The position numbers and the translations under genes are program-made. From the IMG/VR virus record IMGVR_UViG_3300042360_000498, positions 1 through 30,586 of that record: a stretch of 30,586 bases of DNA. One strand, 5' to 3'. The stretch is from a virus. Taxonomy: Duplodnaviria; Caudoviricetes. The notes under the pieces were generated by a model that worked only from the letters and a program-made list of their open reading frames with translations, was not told where the DNA came from and did not search any database. This document shows positions 2,232 through 29,150 of this stretch, piece after piece (position 1 is the first letter of the stretch; the number at the start of each line of letters is the position of its first letter).

Positions 2232-3954
2232 ATATTAAAATATTTATATCATTATTGATTATTGTTAAAACTTGTTCCCGCACACCTACAATATTCTTAT
2301 TTTGTGGAGTTGATGTAATAGAAATTTGGGTTGATGTTGTAGAAAGTTCTGGGATAGTTATTAAACCAGAAGAATAATTTATAGTCCCGAAAGTGTTGTC
2401 TTTATATAGTTTTTGATTACTCACAATTTCATAGAGTCTCAAATTCCCTAATCCGTCATCATCAATATAATTATTAACCCCCGCTACAAGAAACGGGCTA
2501 GAAACAACAGAATTTACTTGTAATTGATTATTAAAATTTAAAATATAACGATTAAGTATATTAGGAGTTGTATTAATAATTAATTTACATTTCAATGAAG
2601 TTTCGTTAGATACTATAGAATTATCTGATTTATCTATAATGTTCACTAGTGTAGAATATAGGAATTTTTTATCAAACCTTTCTAAGTTTTCGTTAGAAAA
2701 CTGAATGATTTTCTGCTTAACATTATTCACAATAGCATTTGATGATAATGTAGTTTTATTTTTATCATAGTATAATTTTATTTCTGGGATAATATAGAAT
2801 ATTTCGCTATTTACTATTTCTGGAATAACAGTCGTTACATTAGCAGGTTTAAGAATAGTCTTAATTATATTTTCCTTTATGCTATCCGTAATAATAAAAT
2901 TTTCTTTAGGTAGCAATGCTATGAAAACTTTTCCGTATTGTTTAGGGACTGCGTCTTCACCTCCCCAAACTTTAGCGTCATTAATATTCGCATAATCTCG
3001 CAAAAGTAGATTCCTATAATCTTCTGTGGTGATTGCTCTGTTTTGTGTTTGAAATGTTTTAGGAGCAATTCTTTGTATTTTAGTTTTAGATTCTTTTTCA
3101 GAACCACCATTAGACTTTTCTGAAGTAGTGATAGTTATATTAGAATATCCAGATATAGAAGATGTCAACGTAAAAATAGAAATATTATTAGGATTATTTA
3201 AATTACTAACTATATAATCAAATTGAACGATACTTCCTATAGGAGGATTATTTCCTATAATATTATCACCGAAAACTACTTCATACTTACCTCTAGTATT
3301 TTCTTCAATGAAATATATTTTAGAATCGGGGTTTAAATTTTCAGAAGTAACAACTTTTTGATATATCGTAGGATTTAAACTATCTTGACTATCAAAAACT
3401 GTAACAGTAAGAGTAGAAATATCCACATTATCATTTGGAATTTCATAGTATAATTGCTGTTCGCTTACTGTGTATTTAAATGTAAGGACAGTTCCTTCTA
3501 TAATTTCTATATCATTTATTAAAAAATTATTATTCCTTAAAGCTGTGTAGTCTTGTTTCGTATAGAACCTATACGATATATTATCTTTAGAAGATAAAAA
3601 TGCTGTATTTTTAGGAATAAGAATTTGCGAAACTGTATCAGGAATTCCATTAAATTGAATATTTATCTTAGCTCTTGAACATCTTGCAGAACTAGGAATA
3701 TACCCTATAAGTTTTGCGGCAGAAACGATTGAAGAACGCAAGGTTGCGCTGTCCATAAACATTTCGTTCGCAATCATATTTGTGTAAAAACTTTGAAATT
3801 GTGTATTATATGAAAGAACATCTAGAAGAATATTCATAGTAGAACCTTCAAAGTCAAAATCTGAAAGTTCCGATTGATTTTTTAGGAAATTCTTTAAGGA
3901 AGTTTTAATTCCCGTAAAAGAAAGATCTGAAATATTTTTTACTGGTGCTATCAT
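2209..3954 (-). CDS. Baseplate wedge subunit, T4 gp6-like
   Basis: DFDFEGS..NILLDVLSYNT, NEMFMDSATLRSS, FGDNIIG, QNRAITTEDY, VWGGED, YGKVFI. Confidence 0.93.
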   Translation of the reverse strand: MIAPVKNISDLSFTGIKTSLKNFLKNQSELSDFDFEGSTMNILLDVLSYNTQFQSFYTNMIANEMFMDSATLRSSIVSAAKLIGYIPSSARCSRAKINIQFNGIPDTVSQILIPKNTAFLSSKDNISYRFYTKQDYTALRNNNFLINDIEIIEGTVLTFKYTVSEQQLYYEIPNDNVDISTLTVTVFDSQDSLNPTIYQKVVTSENLNPDSKIYFIEENTRGKYEVVFGDNIIGNNPPIGSIVQFDYIVSNLNNPNNISIFTLTSSISGYSNITITTSEKSNGGSEKESKTKIQRIAPKTFQTQNRAITTEDYRNLLLRDYANINDAKVWGGEDAVPKQYGKVFIALLPKENFIITDSIKENIIKTILKPANVTTVIPEIVNSEIFYIIPEIKLYYDKNKTTLSSNAIVNNVKQKIIQFSNENLERFDKKFLYSTLVNIIDKSDNSIVSNETSLKCKLIINTTPNILNRYILNFNNQLQVNSVVSSPFLVAGVNNYIDDDGLGNLRLYEIVSNQKLYKDNTFGTINYSSGLITIPELSTTSTQISITSTPQNKNIVGVREQVLTIINNDINILIFEEKING

Positions 3955-3960
3955 AAAAAC

Positions 3961-3977
3961 TATTTATCATATAAATA
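3961..3977. promoter_or_regulatory. Back-to-back T4-type late promoters (TATAAATA + at 3970-3977; GATAAATA - at 3968-3961)
   Basis: Match to the T4 late consensus TATAAATA directly before both divergent start codons. Confidence 0.7.
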
Positions 3978-3982
3978 ATTGC

Positions 3983-4381
3983 ATGAAAAGTTATAAAGAT
4001 TTTGTTAAAGAAAAAGAAGCTAATGACCCTTGCTGGAAAGGTTATAAACAATTAGGAATGAAGAAAAAGAACGGTAAGAAAGTTCCTAACTGTGTTCCTG
4101 AAGAAGCACTTGAAGAAAGTGAATACGAAGGCAAGAAAATAACTTTAAATAAGCCATTTAGAGTTAATGACAGAAAATCTAAGTTCGCTGTATATGTCAA
4201 AAATGACAACGGAAATGTCGTAAAGGTTCGTTTCGGAGATCCTGAAATGTCTATTAAGAAGGATGACCCAGAAAGAAGAAAAGCATTTAGAGCAAGACAT
4301 AATTGTGATACTGCAACAGATAAAACATCTGCTAAATATTGGTCATGTAGGAGTTGGAGTGATAATGAAGATTGGGTTTAA
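3983..4381 (+). CDS. Basic Cys-containing protein, probable capsid-internal protein
   Basis: N-terminus MKSYKDFVKE resembles the T4 capsid-targeting sequence MKTYQEFIAE; PCWKGY..VPNCVP and FRARHNC..YWSC motifs recalled from T4-like phages; late promoter. Confidence 0.65.
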   Translation: MKSYKDFVKEKEANDPCWKGYKQLGMKKKNGKKVPNCVPEEALEESEYEGKKITLNKPFRVNDRKSKFAVYVKNDNGNVVKVRFGDPEMSIKKDDPERRKAFRARHNCDTATDKTSAKYWSCRSWSDNEDWV

Positions 4382-7831: not shown

Positions 7832-8170
7832 TTAATCTATAACTATTAATTCTTTTTCTAGCTCTAATTTTTTAGCTTCTATTTCATCAATTTGATTTTT
7901 CAGTTTAGCAACATCATTATCTAAATTTCTAATTTTTGCTAATAATTTATTATTTTTAATTTCGTTATATTCTTTTTCAATTATTAACACTTTTTCTCTA
8001 TATTTGCTTTTATTACCAATTTCCCTACCAGTTTTCTTATTAAACTTATAAGCTACTTCGTTACTATCATTCCATGTAGCATGAATTTGTGTAGGAGTTT
8101 CTTTAACTAAATTTAAAGTTCTTGCTTCAACACCATAATTTGTATATTCTTTACAAAACACTGTAGACAT
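7832..8170 (-). CDS. Hypothetical early protein, small beta domain + C-terminal coiled coil
   Basis: SD AAGGA, promoter copy 2, heptad-like C-terminus. Confidence 0.75.
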   Translation of the reverse strand: MSTVFCKEYTNYGVEARTLNLVKETPTQIHATWNDSNEVAYKFNKKTGREIGNKSKYREKVLIIEKEYNEIKNNKLLAKIRNLDNDVAKLKNQIDEIEAKKLELEKELIVID

Positions 8171-8203: not shown

Positions 8204-8260
8204 AGTGATTATCACTGCCTCATATGAATATATTAGCACCTTTAACTACACTTGTAAAGC
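8204..8260 (-). promoter_or_regulatory. Early promoter + leader hairpin, copy 2
   Basis: TTTACA (8258-8253), 17 bp, TAATAT (8235-8230), AGGC-AGTGAT-a-ATCACT. Confidence 0.85.
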
Positions 8261-11009: not shown

Positions 11010-11070
11010 AGTGATGACTATCACCGCTTCATATGAATATACTAGCACTTTTAAACTTACTTGTAAAGCA
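11010..11070 (-). promoter_or_regulatory. Early promoter + leader hairpin, copy 3
   Basis: TTTACA (11067-11062), 17 bp, TAGTAT (11044-11039), AAGC-GGTGAT-agtc-ATCACT. Confidence 0.85.
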
Positions 11071-16262: not shown

Positions 16263-16608
16263 AATATTTCTCCAATTCTTGTATAAGTGCATTCGCATAA
16301 TTAATAGCTTGCTTTGCACAATCATTTTCTACAGAAAAATATTCATAACTAGGATTACTTAACATACCTTGCATCATCATAGAAGCATAATGCGCTCGAT
16401 CTTTATGTTTTACAATCGTATTAAGGGCAAATTTCTGACTATTTATAATGTCATTTAATTCACTTATTTCCTTTTCTAATTTTTTTATGTGTTGAAGGTT
16501 TTCTTCATATAGAAGATTTTGTGATTCTATAGAATCTGTAATTTTTGTTTTCATTGGGGGGTTCCATAATTTTAGTGAGTTGATTCTTTCAAACATTGGA
16601 TACTCCAT
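16255..16608 (-). CDS. Hypothetical protein, coiled coil plus a common phage helical motif
   Basis: DRAHYASMMMQGMLSN...AINYANALIQEL resembles the widespread RDYFA..AMQG....A..ADA motif. Confidence 0.6.
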   Translation of the reverse strand: MEYPMFERINSLKLWNPPMKTKITDSIESQNLLYEENLQHIKKLEKEISELNDIINSQKFALNTIVKHKDRAHYASMMMQGMLSNPSYEYFSVENDCAKQAINYANALIQELEKYYD

Positions 16609-18253
16609 TTAAATAAACTATTGATAATTCACTATTACATATTTCTTGCTGTTTGTCAAGTAATTTATATTCGCCATCTTCAATAACTACTCTCAATTTT
16701 CCTACAGCAGAATTCTTAGTTCCATTATCTGTTTTTGGTTGTTTGAAAATTTCACGAGGTTTACCATTAACTTCACCATAGGTAGATTTTACAGCAAATC
16801 CATGTGTATCCCTAGTAACATAATTATATGCATAACTACCAATTCCCAGAACAATATTTGTAGATGCGAATCCTTTAGCTTTCAACTTATTCATAATGTC
16901 AAGAGTTCGTTGAGGAGTAATGGAATCACCATAAATTAATCCAATGTGACTATCTAAAACTTTGTATCCTTTAGAATTTATTTCACCACCAAATATTTCC
17001 CATAGACATTCTACAGCACCTTTTTGTTCTGGTGTCAATTCAACTTCTTTAAATTCTAATACAGAAGATTCTTCAATATAGTAAAAACGCTTGTCATAAC
17101 GACCCCATTCAATTTCTACAGTGCATGAATAATATTTGTCGCCATCTGTAAAAATTAAAGAAGCTTCTGTATCACCTTGTTCACCATGAGGAGTTTGTTC
17201 GTGAAATAGATCTACAATATAATCTCTACAAAATGACTTCATAGAATTAATATCAGATGTATCTACATATTGGGCAAAAGGAATAGCAGAAATGTTTCCG
17301 CAGATAATATCTACAGGATCCCCCGAGTCTGGACGAATCACAAGTTTTCCATCACGTTGCATAATGATGTCTTTTAATTCAGAAACAATATTAGTGCATA
17401 CATTCCAAAAGTCCCATGTATCAGAAACAATAGAAACGATACCAGTAGGATAAACTTCTGTTAATAATCTTTTAAAGGTTTCACTTTCGCTTTCTTTACC
17501 TCCCATACACATTACAGAATGTTCTGTTGATGGGACACTTCCTCCAATAAAGCCTTCTTTTCCATAGTATTGTTTTAAGAATGAAATTGCAGGAATGCTA
17601 TCTGTCCCTTTAAAGTATTGCAGGTGCGCTGCTCCGCTAATTGCAGAATCAAGAACATTAGACATTCCTCTCATAGAAAAATCATGTGCTTGGAAATCTA
17701 CGAATTCTGGAGTATCGCTTGTTTTTTGTGCAAATTCTTCAAGACATTTTCTATACCATCTTGCAGTTGTTGCGCTTGTGCATGGTTTCCAAAGTGTTGC
17801 AGAAAGAGCAGTTTCTATATAGTTAGTCAACCAATAGAATTCTGGAAGAGTATTATGAATTGTCATCATAGGAACTTTATATGAAACAGCAGATAATTCT
17901 GGAAGTGCTCTGAATTCTAAAGGAAGATATCCTAAATTATGTAACGATTCAATGTGTTCAAAAGTGATAACATCTTTTCCAAGAGCAATTTCAATAAGTT
18001 CTTTATATTCATTAACAACTTCTTGCTTATCACGATTAAAGAACCCTTCATTCCAAGTTTCTTTAAGATAATCCTCAATGAAGTATTTTAATCCAAAGAA
18101 AACTACCTTGTCATCATTGAATTGTTTAGGAAGATTGGAAAGTTTCCCGCTTCTTGCTGTGAGGTTGCTATAAACCATTGTAGTTTCTTCTGGATACTGT
18201 CTACGATGGTCAACTTTGTAAAAATCTGTTTCTAGTAGAGGATTTCTTTTCAT
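16589..18253 (-). CDS. Nicotinamide phosphoribosyltransferase-like enzyme (NARP1 Namat-type)
   Basis: TDFYKVDH, HDFSMRG, TEHSVM, SIVSDTWD, VIRPDSGDP, LIYGDSIT, RDTHGFAVK. Confidence 0.92.
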   Translation of the reverse strand: MKRNPLLETDFYKVDHRRQYPEETTMVYSNLTARSGKLSNLPKQFNDDKVVFFGLKYFIEDYLKETWNEGFFNRDKQEVVNEYKELIEIALGKDVITFEHIESLHNLGYLPLEFRALPELSAVSYKVPMMTIHNTLPEFYWLTNYIETALSATLWKPCTSATTARWYRKCLEEFAQKTSDTPEFVDFQAHDFSMRGMSNVLDSAISGAAHLQYFKGTDSIPAISFLKQYYGKEGFIGGSVPSTEHSVMCMGGKESESETFKRLLTEVYPTGIVSIVSDTWDFWNVCTNIVSELKDIIMQRDGKLVIRPDSGDPVDIICGNISAIPFAQYVDTSDINSMKSFCRDYIVDLFHEQTPHGEQGDTEASLIFTDGDKYYSCTVEIEWGRYDKRFYYIEESSVLEFKEVELTPEQKGAVECLWEIFGGEINSKGYKVLDSHIGLIYGDSITPQRTLDIMNKLKAKGFASTNIVLGIGSYAYNYVTRDTHGFAVKSTYGEVNGKPREIFKQPKTDNGTKNSAVGKLRVVIEDGEYKLLDKQQEICNSELSIVYLNGVSNV

Positions 18254-18255
18254 TT

Positions 18256-19116
18256 CTATAGTTCCTTATTTGTTAATAATTCTACTTTGTTAATATAAAT
18301 AGTTTCCCAGTTTGCTTTGGGATATCTAATATAGTTTATATCTTCAGTTTTACATTGCTTTAAACTGTTAGTATAATAAATTGTATCTATAATTCCTTTG
18401 AATACATCAAAACCTTGCGAGAATATTCCATGTGTTACATAAAGACTTACTTTTGCTGCTCCTAAATATTTAAGAACTTTTCCTAGTTCTATAAAAGTCA
18501 TACCACCATCGCAAATATCATCAACAATCAAGCAATGTTTGTCTTTAACGTCATCATAGAATTTTGTGCATATAATATTTCCAGTTTTCGTATCACGAAG
18601 TTTGCTAGCAGTATATTGTGGAATATTTAAATATTTTGCGCAATCAAATGATTTCTTGACTGCTCCCGCATCTGGAGAAATTATACATTCAAAAGTTTTA
18701 ATTTCTTTAGGATATTGTTCGCCTATTTTTTCTAAAAAATATTTTTGCGAGTAATTAGTAACATTTTTTAGAAGTGCTGGAGCAACATCACTATGAGAAT
18801 CGTAAATAATTAATTCTTCATAATTAATTGTATTAATTAGATTACATATAGTTTTTAATGAAAACACAGAATCATCATTCATTAATCTATCTTGTCTAGC
18901 GTATGGGAAATAAGGAATATATAGTTTTTTGATGTGTTCTAAATCACCTGCTAATAGCAACAATTCTATAAGAGCTTTGTTATCCGTAAAGATAACTTCT
19001 ACATCATTAGCAAATCTATATCCATTAAAAATTTGGACTTCCCCACCAGAAAAGTAGAAAACTTGTAGAGGTTTCCCATCAACTGTAATATATTTCGAAT
19101 CTTGTTTCTGTAACAT
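18256..19116 (-). CDS. Ribose-phosphate pyrophosphokinase-like enzyme (NARP1 Adps-type)
   Basis: FSGGE, PYFPYARQDR, SPDAGA, IVDDICDGGMTF, VTHGIFS. Confidence 0.92.
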   Translation of the reverse strand: MLQKQDSKYITVDGKPLQVFYFSGGEVQIFNGYRFANDVEVIFTDNKALIELLLLAGDLEHIKKLYIPYFPYARQDRLMNDDSVFSLKTICNLINTINYEELIIYDSHSDVAPALLKNVTNYSQKYFLEKIGEQYPKEIKTFECIISPDAGAVKKSFDCAKYLNIPQYTASKLRDTKTGNIICTKFYDDVKDKHCLIVDDICDGGMTFIELGKVLKYLGAAKVSLYVTHGIFSQGFDVFKGIIDTIYYTNSLKQCKTEDINYIRYPKANWETIYINKVELLTNKEL

Positions 19117-19967: not shown

Positions 19968-20011
19968 ATAAAGTTACATATATTTGAATTATTTTCGTGA
20001 TAAATAACTTT

Positions 20012-21586
20012 ATGCAACAGTTATTTTTTGGAATTGTAGAATCCCGTGAAGACCCTCTAAAAATTGGTAGATGTCAAGTTAGAGTTTTTGGTGTTCATAC
20101 CGATGATAAAGAATTACTACCAACAGAAGACCTCCCATATGCTGTTCCTCTACAATCAGTTTCATCTGCAGGAATTTCTGGAATAGGGATTTCCCCTATA
20201 GGGTTAGTAGAAGGGTCAACAGTTGCCATAATATTTGCAGATGGTGAAGATATGCAAATACCAGTAATTCTTGGTTCACTTTTTGGAATAGGAACTCCTC
20301 TAAAAAACAATCAGCGAGGATTTACTGATAAGAATGGAATATTCCCCAAAGCAACTTTTTCTGGGAAATCAGAATTACCAACTCTTGCATCTAGAGAAAA
20401 TGAAAGTGACGATGAAGAAGTCCAAGAAACTGTTTCGTCAGGATTAATAGATGATTGGAAATCCCCTCTAAATTCTTATGACGCACAATATCCATTTAAT
20501 CAAGCAACAGTTACAGAATCTGGACATATTATGGAGTTTGATAATACACCAGATAAAGAAAGAATTAGGATAACACATAAAAATAAATCAGAAATAGAAT
20601 TCCAACCAGATGGAAATTATGTTAATAGAGTTACAAAGGATAGATATTCACTCATAGCAGGTAACGATTTCTTATCTATAAAGGGTGATTGTAAAGTTAC
20701 TGTAGAAGGCAACATTCAAATTCTATGCAATTCAAATGTTGAATTAGTAACAGATGGAAACCTCTCAATGAAAGTTGGTGGGAATTTTTTATCAAGAATT
20801 CAAGGAAAAGCTGTAATTCATTCTAGTGATGACTTATATCTTGTAAGTGATGGTAAAGCTGTTCTAAGAGGTTCTACTACACATCTTAACCCAATTTCTT
20901 TCGGTTATCCGAACGATTTAGCTCCAGAGTTAGAAATAACTGCTCTTGATGCACAAACACAACAAGATGAACCAGAAACAGATCCTGGGATATCAGACGA
21001 TAAATTTAACGAACTAAAAGAGAGGTCAAAGGTGACAGATTATAAAGGTGAGAGTGGAGCAGTTGACAACACACCACCAGCAACAGAAGGTAGACAAGAA
21101 GAAATTGTTACAGAAGGAAATTTAGAATCTACTAGTGAAGATACAATTCTTGCAGGAAATTGGAAAATAAGGGATCTAACAACTGGAGCAGTTTTCCCGC
21201 ATAAGTTACGAGGACAGGTTGGGCTTACAGAAAAACAAATTGCCGATAATTTACAACACATAGCTACAAATATCCTTCTCCCATTAGAACGAAAATATGG
21301 AAGAAAAAACATCCAGATAAATTCAGGATTTAGAAGAGCCAATGATAACTCTCAGCATTCGAAAGGTGAGGCTTTGGACTTAGTATTTAGGAACGCTAAA
21401 TCCCAAGATGACTATCAAGAAATTGCAGCTTGGATACGTGACAACTTAGCATTTGACCAACTCATAGTTGAAAGAGGAAGAAATTTTTGGATACATGTCA
21501 GTTCAACTAAACGACAAAGCAGAAAACAAGTATTGACTAGAATTAAAAGTGGTCGTTATGTTCCGGGAATAGTAGATATTATTTGA
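20012..21586 (+). CDS. Baseplate central spike, T4 gp5-like, with C-terminal M15-type Zn peptidase (start revised to 20012)
   Basis: OB-fold GIVESREDPLKIGRCQVRVFG, YPFN....TESGH..EFD.TP..ERI, beta-helix repeats, then SGFR..SQH..G.A.D..WIHVS; GATAAATA 5 nt before ATG. Confidence 0.9.
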   Translation: MQQLFFGIVESREDPLKIGRCQVRVFGVHTDDKELLPTEDLPYAVPLQSVSSAGISGIGISPIGLVEGSTVAIIFADGEDMQIPVILGSLFGIGTPLKNNQRGFTDKNGIFPKATFSGKSELPTLASRENESDDEEVQETVSSGLIDDWKSPLNSYDAQYPFNQATVTESGHIMEFDNTPDKERIRITHKNKSEIEFQPDGNYVNRVTKDRYSLIAGNDFLSIKGDCKVTVEGNIQILCNSNVELVTDGNLSMKVGGNFLSRIQGKAVIHSSDDLYLVSDGKAVLRGSTTHLNPISFGYPNDLAPELEITALDAQTQQDEPETDPGISDDKFNELKERSKVTDYKGESGAVDNTPPATEGRQEEIVTEGNLESTSEDTILAGNWKIRDLTTGAVFPHKLRGQVGLTEKQIADNLQHIATNILLPLERKYGRKNIQINSGFRRANDNSQHSKGEALDLVFRNAKSQDDYQEIAAWIRDNLAFDQLIVERGRNFWIHVSSTKRQSRKQVLTRIKSGRYVPGIVDII

Positions 21587-22694: not shown

Positions 22695-23575
22695 TAAAAT
22701 TCCCCGACTTTTTCTAATAAATTTATTAACTGCATTTTGATAAAATATTTCTTTATCAATGTATTATTCCGTTCTTTATTATCAATATAACATTTTCTGA
22801 CTTCTTTTTGAAGATCCATAGGAATTTCTGAAAGGTCAATTAATTTTTTGTTTCGTAAAAAATTCCTACTTTCAACTACTGAATATTTATCATGCTCCAA
22901 ACTCATGAAATAATCTTTTTTCTTTTGTGTCATCACACCTTGTCGCTTTTCTTTAATGATAAAAGTATCATCATCAGAAAGAATATTAGGGATACCATCA
23001 CCTGCATCTCCACAAAGTATATGGAGTTTTAAATTATAATTTGGATTATCATTTTCTAACATCATTTTCTGTCTTGTGCAATAATTATAAACATTACTGT
23101 ATCGTTGAAGTTGTAACATATCTTTATCTGCAGAAACTATAATGTGTTGCTGTGTATTGTCGTATGAACATATAGATGCAATAATATCATCTGCTTCCAT
23201 CTTTTCAACTTTCAAAACTTTGTAGGGGAATATCAAGTCAATTTCCTTAATTATCCTATTGTAACTTTCAAAAACATCATTCCATGGAACTGTAGAATTA
23301 TCTCTAGCTTTTTTTCTACCCTGCTTGTAGTATGGGAATAAATCTTTCCTCCAAGTATTCCCAGAATCTAAACAAAGCACAACGTCACCATATTTTCTAT
23401 AAAACTTACTTCTATACATTCTTACAGAATTTAATATTAGGTGACGCAACATGTTTTCTGAAAATCCATTCTCAGAATATTCCCACTCACTAGAAACATT
23501 TCTGTTCTTAGCGTTTTCAGTAATAACAGAAACACTAGCGTGAAGAATAGCAGATAAATCAATCAGTATAGACAT
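22694..23575 (-). CDS. rnh: T4-type RNase H / 5'-3' exonuclease
   Basis: ILIDLS, WRK..FPYYK..R, EADDIIA, SADKDMLQL, GDAGDGIPNI. Confidence 0.93.
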   Translation of the reverse strand: MSILIDLSAILHASVSVITENAKNRNVSSEWEYSENGFSENMLRHLILNSVRMYRSKFYRKYGDVVLCLDSGNTWRKDLFPYYKQGRKKARDNSTVPWNDVFESYNRIIKEIDLIFPYKVLKVEKMEADDIIASICSYDNTQQHIIVSADKDMLQLQRYSNVYNYCTRQKMMLENDNPNYNLKLHILCGDAGDGIPNILSDDDTFIIKEKRQGVMTQKKKDYFMSLEHDKYSVVESRNFLRNKKLIDLSEIPMDLQKEVRKCYIDNKERNNTLIKKYFIKMQLINLLEKVGEF

Positions 23576-25332: not shown

Positions 25333-25363
25333 GATTTAAATTACAGAATATATAACTAAAAAT

Positions 25364-25389
25364 TGGGGAGGGTTTTTACAACCTCCCCA
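25364..25389 (-). terminator. Intrinsic terminator
   Basis: TGGGGAGG-loop-CCTCCCCA followed by ATTTTT on the minus strand. Confidence 0.7.
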
Positions 25390-25398
25390 TATTGTGAA

Positions 25399-25644
25399 TT
25401 AAACTTTACTATAAGAATTAACTCTTGTCAAGTCAAAACTTTTCCAAGTTTTACTATCAACATCAAAAACACTAATAACATTTCCATTAACAGCTTTTTC
25501 TGCTTTTAATGAATCTACATATTCTTGATTAAGTGTAGCATTGATTTTTCTAACTTCACCATTTTTTTTAGTAAAATCAATGGCAACTATACTATTTTGT
25601 AATTGTGTAATAATTTCTTGTTGATTTTCAATAATTGCGTTCAT
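25399..25644 (-). CDS. Small SH3/WYL-like protein (DUF2693-like)
   Basis: FTKKNGEVR...ATL, VFDV....WKSF; SD AGGAG. Confidence 0.75.
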   Translation of the reverse strand: MNAIIENQQEIITQLQNSIVAIDFTKKNGEVRKINATLNQEYVDSLKAEKAVNGNVISVFDVDSKTWKSFDLTRVNSYSKV

Positions 25645-25663: not shown

Positions 25664-26527
25664 TTAAATTTTATGTGTATCGTATTCTTGATCGTAAGAT
25701 TCGTTTTCGTCATTTTCTAATTCATCTTCATTTTCTTCATAGAAACTCCTGTGTTCGCTATAGTTTTTAAAAATGTCATCATCTTGCCAGTTTTCAACTT
25801 CTCCGATGACTTCATATCTGCAAGTTCTACCCTTTGTATTATTATAATCACTTGGGATAGAAACTACATCTTTTGGATTAATCTTAAGGATAACAACTCT
25901 AGAACCTCCGAAATGCGCTAGGTATGGATAAGAACAAAAATGAAATCCATAAGAACATGTATTATCACGCTTATCATCTACTTTATTCCTAGGCATTTTA
26001 AGAACTTGACCTACAGAATTATCAAATTTTCCAGAATAGATATCACGATAATCACCTGTAACTTTTTTATATGCTAAGAAATGCCCATCGTCAGTAATTG
26101 GGAATTCCCCACTTTGAATAAATAAGTAGAGTTCTTCAATAGCAGTTGCAGAAGGATTTTGCATAAGATTTTCAACAAACAGAGCAAATCCTGTAATGTC
26201 ATACCCTGTTTTAATATCATTCAATAATTTATATTGTAGTGTAGAAGGTATTGATTCGCCATCATGCAAAATTTCTTCATTTTCAGTTATTGTAAGGTTG
26301 CTAGAAATTTGTTTTGAAAATGCTTTAATTAAAAGATTTGTATTTCCATTTATAAGGGATTCTAACTGGTCATACTCTTTTGTAACTAATAGAATATTCT
26401 TGATTGTTTCAAAGTTAAGATTATCTGATTGGATAACAGTTGGTTTATTGTTTAGTAACATAGATATACTTTTATCAGATATTACCATTCCTATAGGTTT
26501 AGACATTAGATTTTTCTCCGTGTTCAA
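25664..26527 (-). CDS. rIIB: RIIB-like protein
   Basis: LYLFI..GEFPITDDGHFLAYKKV, MPRNKVDD, CSYGFH, NPKDVVSIP.DY...KGR.C.YEV; follows rIIA; likely start MSKP at 26506. Confidence 0.88.
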   Translation of the reverse strand: MNTEKNLMSKPIGMVISDKSISMLLNNKPTVIQSDNLNFETIKNILLVTKEYDQLESLINGNTNLLIKAFSKQISSNLTITENEEILHDGESIPSTLQYKLLNDIKTGYDITGFALFVENLMQNPSATAIEELYLFIQSGEFPITDDGHFLAYKKVTGDYRDIYSGKFDNSVGQVLKMPRNKVDDKRDNTCSYGFHFCSYPYLAHFGGSRVVILKINPKDVVSIPSDYNNTKGRTCRYEVIGEVENWQDDDIFKNYSEHRSFYEENEDELENDENESYDQEYDTHKI

Positions 26528-28646
26528 TAATTAATTTAATTGATTCTAAAATTTTATTCTTATATTCTTCAGGGTGTCTATCAAAATAATAGTATCCTAA
26601 TTGTAATGAATATATTATAGGGTATTTTTCCTCATAATACAAGTTAATTATTGTAGAAATTGAATTATAATCACTTTTATTATATTGTAGATAAATATAT
26701 TCAAACAATCGTATTTTAAATTCGTGTGCATGTGTTAATTTGCTATATTGGATTATGATAGAATTGTTATTTTCTAATTCTAAATATTGTTTTTTTAGAG
26801 GAAGTTCTATATCATTAATAATTTTAAATAATACCAATATACTAGAGTTAATATTATCATTTAAAGCATTTGCAGCTTCTTGTGCAAATGCTTCATATGT
26901 TGGATATTTCTCAATTATTTTCTCAGCAAAAACATCAAAAACATTTTTAGAATTAGGATAATTTTTAGAAACATTTTTTGCATATGTATTATTAACAAAA
27001 ACTAAATTTTCAATTTCTAATTCCCTACAAAAACTTTTCAGATTATCAACACGAATATCTATATCTCCTGGAAAATATATTTTCTCAGCTCTCACTGGTA
27101 TATAGCAAAAATCAACAGTTTTTAATTCTTCTGGGATAAGTTCTAAATTATTCTGTAAAAAATTAGTATTTGAATAATTCCAAAACCATCTACCTTTTTC
27201 TGATTTATTTTTAGAAGGAATTGTAACTGGTTTTTCTAATTCAGAAACATATATGATAGAATCCCAAACGTGTGAAGTTACATCTAAAAAGTATTCAAGT
27301 GATTCTTTATTATAATTTTCTATTACGATATACTGATAAATTTGATTTTTATTAATATGCAATTTAAACTTTTGTTTCCATGAAGATTTTTTGTCAACAA
27401 TGAAAAGTGTTTTTTGATTTTTATATGATACTCTTAAAACTTTATCACTAGTCGGGAGTAAGTCCTCACCAAGAATTGTTTGAAGTGAAAAATTACTATC
27501 TTTATTAGTTATACTTATCGCTTTAATTTTTTCAACATCAATCTTTATAACTTCATCTAGAGTTTCTCCAAATATTTCCTTAACAGCTTTATATGCAGAT
27601 TCTGTGACTTCTGTCTGATAGTTATACGAAAAATACTTTTTAGAATCAGCAATAACAGAATACATTTTTCTAGTGCATAACTTAACACTATCTCTATTTT
27701 CTAAACAATAATTTTCAATTTCACATAACATCTTAGTTTTCAAGTGTTCTGCTTTGTCATTTAATAATTGTAAGATATATTCTTTATTAGAGTCAGAATT
27801 TGTTACTTGTTCCCTATTAGTAGAATATTCTATGGAACCATTATCAACTAAGAAAAATAATTTAGAATAAATATTAAATGGCGAATTTCTATCGATAATG
27901 TTATTAATGGGATATGCAATATTTGACTGTAGAATATAAGAACCAGAATAATTAGGCATACTAGAAATTTCGCAATATACTCCATCAATCAGTTTTTCAA
28001 ATCTATCTTCAACTTCCTTTATTTTAAAATCTGCTCCAATAAGTTTAGGAGTCGTTTCTATAAAACTGGTAAAAACTTCTTTAGCTTTATCTTGAAATTT
28101 ACTGATATCTTTTTCCATGACAGAAAACATTATCTTTAATCCATTTTCTTCAACAGTAGAAATTTCACTCACAAGCCTATAAGATATTTTTTCATTTTCG
28201 TTAAAGAAAATAGAATATGTATATTCAAATCCATCTTGATACGAAATCACCATAAACGAATCTGTGTAAGATAATGGAGTTTTAGAACCTAATCCAAACA
28301 TCCCATTTACATCATTAGAATTTTGCTTGTCACTATTAAAGAATTGTGTATAAACTTTTCTTACTTTTTCTTTAGATAATCCTGTTCCATAATCCCTTAC
28401 ATAGAAAATTGGATTAATTACCGTAGGGAGCTTAACTTCAAATTTTTTATGTTTGTTGTCCGCCATGATATGAGAATCCCAAGCATTTGTTGAGAGTTCT
28501 CTTATGATAGCTTTTACTGTATCGGAATATATTCCTCCACATAGAATAGAAAAAGCTGCTTTATTAGGAGTGATTGAAAATTCGCCCTCTTCAATAAATT
28601 CATTTTCTGTGTATATATTATTTTTCGTTTGTTGTATTGGTATCAT
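26499..28646 (-). CDS. rIIA: RIIA-like protein with N-terminal GHKL ATPase (start revised to 28646)
   Basis: IRELSTNAWDSH, VRDYGTGL, GMFGLGSK; SD AAGGA before ATG 28646. Confidence 0.9.
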   Translation of the reverse strand: MIPIQQTKNNIYTENEFIEEGEFSITPNKAAFSILCGGIYSDTVKAIIRELSTNAWDSHIMADNKHKKFEVKLPTVINPIFYVRDYGTGLSKEKVRKVYTQFFNSDKQNSNDVNGMFGLGSKTPLSYTDSFMVISYQDGFEYTYSIFFNENEKISYRLVSEISTVEENGLKIMFSVMEKDISKFQDKAKEVFTSFIETTPKLIGADFKIKEVEDRFEKLIDGVYCEISSMPNYSGSYILQSNIAYPINNIIDRNSPFNIYSKLFFLVDNGSIEYSTNREQVTNSDSNKEYILQLLNDKAEHLKTKMLCEIENYCLENRDSVKLCTRKMYSVIADSKKYFSYNYQTEVTESAYKAVKEIFGETLDEVIKIDVEKIKAISITNKDSNFSLQTILGEDLLPTSDKVLRVSYKNQKTLFIVDKKSSWKQKFKLHINKNQIYQYIVIENYNKESLEYFLDVTSHVWDSIIYVSELEKPVTIPSKNKSEKGRWFWNYSNTNFLQNNLELIPEELKTVDFCYIPVRAEKIYFPGDIDIRVDNLKSFCRELEIENLVFVNNTYAKNVSKNYPNSKNVFDVFAEKIIEKYPTYEAFAQEAANALNDNINSSILVLFKIINDIELPLKKQYLELENNNSIIIQYSKLTHAHEFKIRLFEYIYLQYNKSDYNSISTIINLYYEEKYPIIYSLQLGYYYFDRHPEEYKNKILESIKLIIEHGEKSNV

Positions 28647-28651
28647 GAAAG

Positions 28652-28784
28652 TATTCCTTAATAAAATTAAAATGTGGTGTTCAAACAATTTTTACAGCTT
28701 ATGCAAAATAGCAAATTGATTCTGCATTGTTTATACGTCCTGTTACACCACAAAACAACTTTAAGGAGTATCAATTTGCTTCAT
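28652..28784 (-). ncRNA. Putative structured cis-regulatory 5' leader of rIIA with a 7-codon uORF
   Basis: Four nested complementary pairs plus an 11-bp crossing pair (see findings). Confidence 0.6.
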
Positions 28785-28844
28785 AAAATAATATTACATA
28801 AAAGAATAATAAAAGCAATATATAAAACATTACAAATTTGTAAC

Positions 28845-28873
28845 TTGACATAAAATTTTGAAATGTGTATAAT
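28845..28873 (+). promoter_or_regulatory. Perfect-consensus sigma70 promoter
   Basis: TTGACA (28845-28850), 17 bp, TATAAT (28868-28873). Confidence 0.85.
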
Positions 28874-29150
28874 TTTTTTTAAAGTCTTTCTTAAAATTAT
28901 TTCTTTTAAACATTTTAAAATTAATTTTTATAAAATAACTCTTAAAATAATTATACTTAAAACTATTCTTAAAGTAAAGTGTTTTATAAGTTTATAAACA
29001 TTAAGTTACTTAAAATTATTCTTAAAGTTCATTATCAATAATTATTGATTACTTAATGTTAAACTAAACATAAAATAACCTTAAAGATAATTATACTGTT
29101 TGAAATAATGAATAGTTATGTTTAAAAATAGAATTACTAATAATATAAAA
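28874..29150. other. Extremely AT-rich non-coding tract with CTTAAA iterations; candidate replication origin
   Basis: Repeated CTTAAA units and two pairs of longer degenerate repeats; no ORF. Confidence 0.4.

Follow-up and report, generated by a model that had tools for sequence, protein, structure and literature searches.

What is a long, structured leader doing in front of the rIIA and rIIB genes of a phage? The question is raised by a 30,586-nucleotide (nt) virus contig (IMG/VR record IMGVR_UViG_3300042360_000498; "the window" below means this whole stretch), on whose minus strand positions 28646-28796 lie directly upstream of rIIA. How the rII genes, a classical counter-defence pair, work is still unclear: they are reported to defeat RexAB in diverse phages (PMC11879866), rIIA is described as encoding a poorly understood GHKL counter-defence protein (PMC7824862), and RIIB was reported to be toxic to E. 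coli and to trigger a gasdermin defence (bioRxiv 2023.05.28.542683). Because RIIB is both toxic and sensed by gasdermin systems, its dose should matter; this may not hold in the host of this phage. Our verdict, drawn largely from folding models, is that the leader is a real, orphan bistable element, a variant of known phage leaders that hide the Shine-Dalgarno (SD) sequence. We tentatively read it as a folding-timed switch that would cap the dose of RIIA and RIIB, and put the probability of this reading at roughly 0.42.

All pairings that an earlier note on this DNA had named were found where it had placed them (minus strand, as for all leader coordinates below). P0 joins an anti-SD strand (28761-28770; sequence and folding) to a 3' arm containing the rIIA SD (28652-28661; sequence) by 9 of 10 pairs, the exception being a C-A mismatch, and P1 joins 28745-28752 to 28673-28680 (both sequence and folding) by 8 of 8 pairs. 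P3 forms 7 pairs around a 9-nt loop and can be extended to 9 pairs in a hairpin at 28701-28727 (folding). P2 (7 pairs) and an ACAG/CUGU complement are also present but, being short and AU-rich, carry no statistical support of their own, and P2 lies outside the minimum-energy fold, which uses another register. The four helices of the earlier note together gave -19.9 kcal/mol, against -31.0 kcal/mol for the best full-length fold, a rod built from P3, P1 and P0. Finally, the sequence at 28780-28770 (strand A) is a perfect 11-nt complement of 28720-28710 (strand A', which overlaps P3 and its loop; folding and sequence). Strand A is a free tail in the rod and is predicted by folding to be the 5' arm of an 11-base-pair (bp) helix in the nascent RNA.

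In nearest-neighbour models of the growing RNA, two mutually exclusive folds followed one another. The nascent fold consists of the 11-bp helix, two predicted 7-bp hairpins, H2 (28737-28756, occupying part of the P1 5' arm) and H4 (28690-28708, occupying the P3 3' arm), and H3; numbered from the predicted transcription start (+1), it had a probability above 0.9 from +75 to +110, at -22.5 kcal/mol. The rod took over at +112 (-24.5 kcal/mol, with P1 at 0.93), and P0 stood at 0.99 from +130 onwards; this course was nearly unchanged at 15 C. The two folds have 0 pairs in common, and the rod was favoured by 2 kcal/mol at 112 nt and by 6.6 to about 8 kcal/mol at full length (141 nt). Of 1000 shuffles at 112 nt, 6 produced a second fold that is equally stable and shares no pair with the best one; both folds were matched in stability in 3 of 1000 shuffles at this length and 1 of 1000 at 141 nt. 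The refolding barrier was about 20-22 kcal/mol, an upper bound, as it was computed along a nested path only (no pseudoknotted intermediates).

The earlier note had offered the 11-nt complement as either a pseudoknot or an alternative fold. The alternative fold is favoured; a full 11-bp pseudoknot alongside P3 would conflict with helix geometry. The 11-bp helix consumes two P3 bases and the whole loop and leaves no linker, and on a long rod the loop lies far from the tail. An H-type pseudoknot retaining all 11 bp would have 0 linker nt with the full P3 and 4 with a 5-bp P3, short of the loop length needed to cross the 11-bp stem. Thus, the 11-bp helix is more likely an alternative fold than a standing pseudoknot, with at most a partial contact between tail and loop.

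Several measures indicate that the minus-strand leader is non-random. It folded better than its shuffles, with minimum-energy z-scores of -3.1 (1 of 200 shuffles; 151 nt), -2.8 (2 of 200; 141 nt) and about -2.7 (10 of 1500). Furthermore, the best fold leaves two main segments unpaired, the 5' tail (17 nt) and the apical loop (9 nt), and these complement each other exactly. A 9-nt Watson-Crick complement that joins two such unpaired segments and crosses the best fold occurred in none of 1500 shuffles and in one of 1740 contig windows on both strands, the rIIA leader itself; among 64 distinct upstream regions of rIIA homologues, none had a crossing complement of at least 7 nt between unpaired segments. 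This statistic was defined after the element had been seen, so these figures overstate significance, and a perfect 11-bp helix of any kind arose in 18 of 1500 shuffles. The 11-mer has no repeat elsewhere in the contig, its nearest match being 10 of 11 positions inside a gene.

The leader is also unusually long. From the predicted +1 to the rIIA start codon it spans 138 nt, whereas 44 of 47 homologous leaders measured 60 nt or less (median 32 nt). This comparison began with 80 IMG/VR rIIA loci, which gave the 64 distinct upstream regions, and excluded 17 that had no promoter call. Against the usual short rIIA leaders, about 100 nt of structure is therefore extra here; the one homologue whose leader measures 134 nt (L037) has no similar fold. 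That all this is functionless pairing, arisen by chance in AT-rich DNA, seems to us highly improbable, since several measures agree and the leader has about four times the usual length, even though the statistics are post hoc, very many windows were read and no conservation was seen.

How might the two folds act on rIIA? As the RNA emerges, the 11-bp helix would close a three-way junction (H2 and a small H3), and H4 would then form. This nascent state would keep the anti-SD strand off the SD and block P1, so that the polymerase could pass the U-rich tract behind P1 and ribosomes could load. Once the P1 3' arm is freed, the rod would become the more stable state, the RNA would relax into it and the SD would be covered. 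Each transcript would thereby offer a limited translation window, as in the maturation leader of phage MS2, while transcripts that adopt the rod early may stop at the U-rich tract; rIIB expression would follow that of rIIA by translational coupling. No outside signal would be required.

In the models, opening the SD cost 4.9 kcal/mol in the rod, 2.8 in the nascent fold and 2.6 when the 5' arm was absent, which points to a modest block of about 2-2.5 kcal/mol. Of the SD-sequestering stem proposed earlier, the helix itself is upheld (P0 at 0.99 in the full-length model), whereas strong sequestration is not, given the 4.9 kcal/mol opening cost. As an RNA-thermometer test, the modelled cost was 6.7 kcal/mol at 5 C and had fallen only to 4.4 at 45 C.

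A second output may lie at the U-rich tract (28663-28672; 8 of 10 U), which follows P1 directly, was absent from the earlier description and is a candidate pause or termination site. Such tracts occupy 0.13% of all positions in the window; for the local non-coding DNA the figure is 0.6%. Judged as an intrinsic terminator, the site has an 8-bp stem and 8 U in 10 positions, but a 64-nt loop. With a polymerase modelled at the end of the tract (+120), the two folds stood at 0.45 to 0.55 when 9 nt were protected and at 1.0 to 0.0 when 14 were. Transcription attenuation at this site is thus possible on the models.

This balance at the U-rich tract also speaks for a signal-gated attenuator, in which binding of strand A would lead to the rod, termination and SD block (off) and free strand A to read-through (on); candidate binders would be a ribosome on the leaderless AUG, RIIA, RIIB or the product of the WYL_2 gene, an antisense RNA or a ligand. 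When nt 1-16 were blocked in the model, the nascent helix was lost and the RNA went to the rod, with P3 at 0.97 at +84 and P1 at 0.99-1.0 at +112. An AUG at the inferred +1 and the Sm-like WYL_2 gene that ends the unit fit this scheme as well. On the other hand, the AUG is not kept by sister promoters in the contig, leaderless ribosome loading would have to outrun a helix formed about 75 nt into transcription, and a WYL_2 gene is found in 13 of 46 rIIA-bearing records, in none of them directly behind rIIB. With no conservation, no ligand pocket can be named either. We regard gating by a signal as possible but doubtful.

The same promoter, rod and U-rich tract would delimit a discrete unit of another kind, an independent small RNA, about 120 nt long, that has a promoter and a terminator (P1 and the U-rich tract) of its own, for example a decoy against host defence, with rIIA-rIIB expressed by read-through; tail-to-loop pairing could then occur between two molecules. 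Homologous rIIA genes lacking such a unit are in keeping with this. However, the anti-SD arm finds a partner only in the read-through RNA, the terminator would have a long loop and no family match was obtained, and we consider a free-standing small RNA distinctly improbable.

The start site of the leader bears on several of these readings. A predicted early promoter (TTGCTT-16-TAATAT; 28791-28818) is followed, 6 nt past its -10 box, by a start motif, AUGAAGC (28778-28784), which is identical at 11032 and has the same pattern at 8223, 4772 and 19930. This motif stands at the distance from the -10 box seen in the sister promoters, which supports placing +1 at 28784, as we infer from sequence. 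The sister family comprises seven minus-strand early promoters of the form TTTACA-17-TAnnnT, counted after plus-strand pattern matches at 8148 and 18347 had been set aside as chance. Six nt past the -10 box, four of the seven carry AT(G/A)A(A/G)GC, one a version shorter by one base and two a different sequence; the +1 triplet is AUG in three and AUA in two. Each sister cassette (minus-strand starts 4772, 8223, 11032, 12783, 15045, 19930 and 22088) consists of promoter, 5' hairpin, SD and a small unknown open reading frame (ORF), and several are placed head-to-head between structural genes.

When six sister cassettes were folded together, the bases from +1 formed the 5' arm of a hairpin, with compensating changes in 3 of 10 pairs. 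This speaks for a static view in which only the rod matters, whether by stabilising the 5' end, by blocking the SD weakly and constantly or as a site for a double-strand nuclease, and the sister-promoter hairpin survives as a relic in the 11-nt complement: the inner hairpin pairs UGAU/AUCA are the inner four of the 11-bp helix, and the rod is the global minimum at full length. Those four pairs are the only core common to both, and a relic would be unlikely to stay perfect over 11 pairs that coincide exactly with the two segments left unpaired in the rod (0/1500 shuffles, as above). A static dampener or processing signal is therefore unlikely in our view, and a folding-timed switch remains the preferred reading.

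The upstream ORF (uORF) that the earlier note described is present (MKQIDTP*; 28761-28784, its AUG 6 nt after the TAATAT at 28796-28791), in frame with rIIA but closed, and its stop codon is part of the anti-SD. Its standing as a dedicated part fared less well, the AUG not being kept by the sister promoters. As the AUG is supplied with the promoter family, the uORF needs no function of its own; it is probably incidental, and 43% of frames in local non-coding DNA close within 8 codons. A role by co-option could still have arisen. Read-through of the uORF into rIIA was rejected, for a second stop lies six codons on, and the peptide contains no run of sensing codons, so that the conserved sensing ORF of ribosome-dependent attenuators has no counterpart here. 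According to the models, the operon would be turned off if a ribosome occupied the uORF while the RNA was still being made, whereas one at the stop codon of a finished transcript would briefly open the SD. A translation-sensing switch could build on this: a ribosome on the leaderless AUG would lead to the rod and a stop at the U-rich tract, and a host defence that slows translation would let the 11-bp helix form and rIIA-rIIB be made. We hold this to be rather improbable; if true, it would mean that an anti-defence system, being toxic and able to trigger defence itself, is expressed conditionally.

Several observations weigh against a folding-timed switch. The folding dynamics come from models that contain neither pseudoknots nor real kinetics. 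At 141 nt, the second fold was equalled in 31 of 1000 shuffles. Of 642 other contig windows matched in G+C content, one, inside a coding gene, also has a second fold of this stability. The SD opening cost is no outlier among 28 starts, 5 of the 27 others being higher and 2 equal, although, where a promoter lies close to a gene, the folded segment included upstream DNA that is not transcribed, and this may have inflated the cost for such genes. P1 closes 64 nt, while the three clear terminators of the contig have loops of 8-12, and the U-rich tract also pairs within the rod and so is not independent evidence. The rIIA -35 box (TTGCTT, with a 16-nt spacer) differs from those of the sister promoters, and the position of +1 is a predicted one. 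Lastly, no homologue of the leader was found, and hence no covariation. As an observation on the contig itself, a 112-nt segment with two near-equal folds (-25.3 and -24.6 kcal/mol) lies at 22915-23026 on the minus strand, in the exonuclease gene, and is probably chance in coding DNA.

Leaders in which alternative folds or a loop-pairing strand set SD access include the two-fold leader of lambda cIII and the leader-peptide pseudoknot of IncI repY/repZ; these serve as leads only, as their polarity and parts differ from those of the rIIA leader and no antisense RNA gene is evident here. A closer parallel is the maturation gene's 5' untranslated region in MS2, a levivirus, in which an upstream complement is reported to pair over a distance with a 7-nt SD, and a metastable early fold to hide the anti-SD, giving a brief translation window for a protein needed in low amount (PMC4615214). 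The two leaders are of similar size and, in the rIIA case on models only, combine an early fold that hides the anti-SD with a final fold that blocks the SD. They differ in that the MS2 end state is a cloverleaf and its metastable structure a small hairpin, while the rIIA leader would end as a rod and begin as a three-way junction closed by 11 bp; moreover, the rIIA leader belongs to a DNA phage, has a possible terminator, and shows no sequence relation and no Rfam match. By analogy, it would work most like the MS2 maturation leader without being a member of that group.

Within T4-type phages, the genes e, soc, 49 and I-TevI are described as having hairpins that hide the SD, relieved by a late promoter inside the hairpin (PMC3014915). 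Like them, the rIIA leader would place the SD of an early transcript in an intramolecular helix (P0 at 0.99, a weak block), but they are single hairpins whereas it has two folds. A late promoter inside the arm, as in gene e, was rejected: no TAAATA occurs on the minus strand at 28650-28800, the nearest approach to the late motif in the leader being TATAAACA at 28735. The motif itself is in use in the contig, at 7 of 11 structural-gene starts. Several late genes (3954-3983, 19997-20012) lack an SD and have TAAATA only 11-15 nt ahead of their start codon, which suggests near-leaderless late transcripts, and two divergent late promoters overlap at 3954-3983.

Attenuators of the trp type, as outlined in PMC4615214, resemble the rIIA leader in having a short ORF that overlaps the 5' helix, alternative folds and a stem followed by a U-tract; unlike them, the leader has no sensing-codon run, an AUG that is not kept in the sister promoters and a terminator stem that closes 64 nt. 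PeSL cassettes of T4-type phages are reported to combine a repeated sigma-70 early promoter, a stem-loop and an SD before unknown ORFs (PMC2839356, PMC4122927), and the 5' end of the leader looks derived from the PeSL-like cassette of this phage. In PeSL cassettes the stem-loops, which act as terminators, are located upstream of the promoter or inside it, while here the hairpin lies just behind +1. According to a 2010 review, T4 had at that date yielded no functionally characterised riboswitch (PMC3014915).

That the earlier note recognised no known riboswitch or ribozyme class in the leader agreed with our searches. Rfam 15 gave no match at gathering score in the whole window, the best over the element being manA-II at 16.3 bits (100 required; E 7.1). 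No ribozyme core (hammerhead, twister, pistol, glmS or HDV-like) was found on either strand with rough motifs and a hand-written double-pseudoknot descriptor, and there was no transfer RNA or transfer-messenger RNA. Blastn gave one short chance match against phages and 13 chance matches of 30 nt against plasmids. Sequence-pattern scans returned 14 and 5 matches, all judged chance; a single-sequence covariance model, which has low reach, found only itself in 94 sources and nothing in 93 loci or 49 virus records; and nhmmer had no match over 228 loci. Relatives of the genes were no closer: rIIA patterns in IMG/VR gave no close relative, and in protein searches the best other rIIA was 30% identical over its full length and about 50% over the N-terminal 200 amino acids. 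For gp2 loci in viral, metagenome and genome collections, identity across most of the protein did not exceed 43%, and none had rIIA adjoining, although seven gp2 proteins at 48-60% are known. A literature search found no publication on a structured rIIA leader, within a coverage that largely left out subscription and older T4 papers and the supplements of structured-RNA catalogues. As no Rfam family, homologue or covariation was found, the function of the leader is a prediction.

The analysis concerns one sequence from one phage population. Near-identical DNA occurs in lake and freshwater metagenomes, at least half of the sampled words being present in 7 of the 24 listed runs. Among population contigs from eight runs, those of X2, X3, X5, X6 and X8 cover the element wholly or partly with 0 differences, and these five are too alike to be informative.

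The earlier note had left open a plus-strand or DNA-level role. The messenger strand is favoured: the z-score was -2.8 on the minus and -2.0 on the plus strand, the second fold reached -23.2 against -17.4 kcal/mol, and the minus strand has 5 G-U pairs in its rod and 4 in its nascent fold, against 3 on the plus strand. Inverted repeats acting as protein sites, a part in an adjoining origin-like region or a plus-strand function would gain from P0, which on the plus strand pairs 11 of 11 with two G-U pairs, and from the divergent consensus promoter and 14% GC repeat array that adjoin the leader. Yet folding is poorer on the plus strand, where a comparable second fold is missing, its strong promoter is directed away, the contig contains no further copy of the 11-mer, and DNA folding gave only -14.8 and -13.0 kcal/mol; we consider such a role very unlikely. 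The adjoining region (28845-29130) holds a perfect plus-strand promoter, TTGACA-17-TATAAT, back to back with that of rIIA and firing into an array of TTTTAAG repeats before late genes; in sequence it looks like a promoter-primed replication origin. Runs X5 and X6 also contain contigs of a second type, aligned to window positions 28815-28959, which share the back-to-back promoter region (28815-28879) with 9 differences in 65 nt and are without the leader; they are probably from a related phage.

By gene content the contig is a T4-like myovirus, with terminase, tail sheath and tubes, baseplate, a gp5-like hub, exonuclease, the gp2 DNA end protector, rIIA and a rIIB-like gene; the nearest cultured phages have 24-37% identity in rIIA and about 41% in gp2. 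The genes downstream of the leader are indeed rIIA and a rIIB-like gene. rIIA (26499-28646, minus strand; PHROG 612, E 1.5e-90) encodes 715 amino acids with an N-terminal GHKL-type ATPase, and the start of the rIIB-like gene (25664-26506, minus strand) overlaps its stop, which makes translational coupling of rIIB to rIIA likely. The rIIB-like gene is short (about 280 amino acids) and matches the C-terminal part of PHROG 609; a relative lies nearby in 76 of 80 rIIA loci. Directly behind it, ahead of a terminator-like hairpin that ends the rII unit (25356-25389, minus strand; folding), is the gene for an 81-amino-acid WYL_2 (Sm-like) protein (25399-25644, minus strand; PF10902, E 2e-11), a likely third member of the unit. 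In other records this gene is placed elsewhere, near RNase H in phiM12 for instance, and WYL_2 as a conserved rII partner was rejected on the record counts given above, the positions relative to rIIB having been compared by hand. Further along the window, at 16589-19116, are genes for nicotinamide phosphoribosyltransferase and phosphoribosyl pyrophosphate synthetase, which we take to be a nicotinamide adenine dinucleotide (NAD+) salvage pair of the kind used by phages against NAD-depleting defences.

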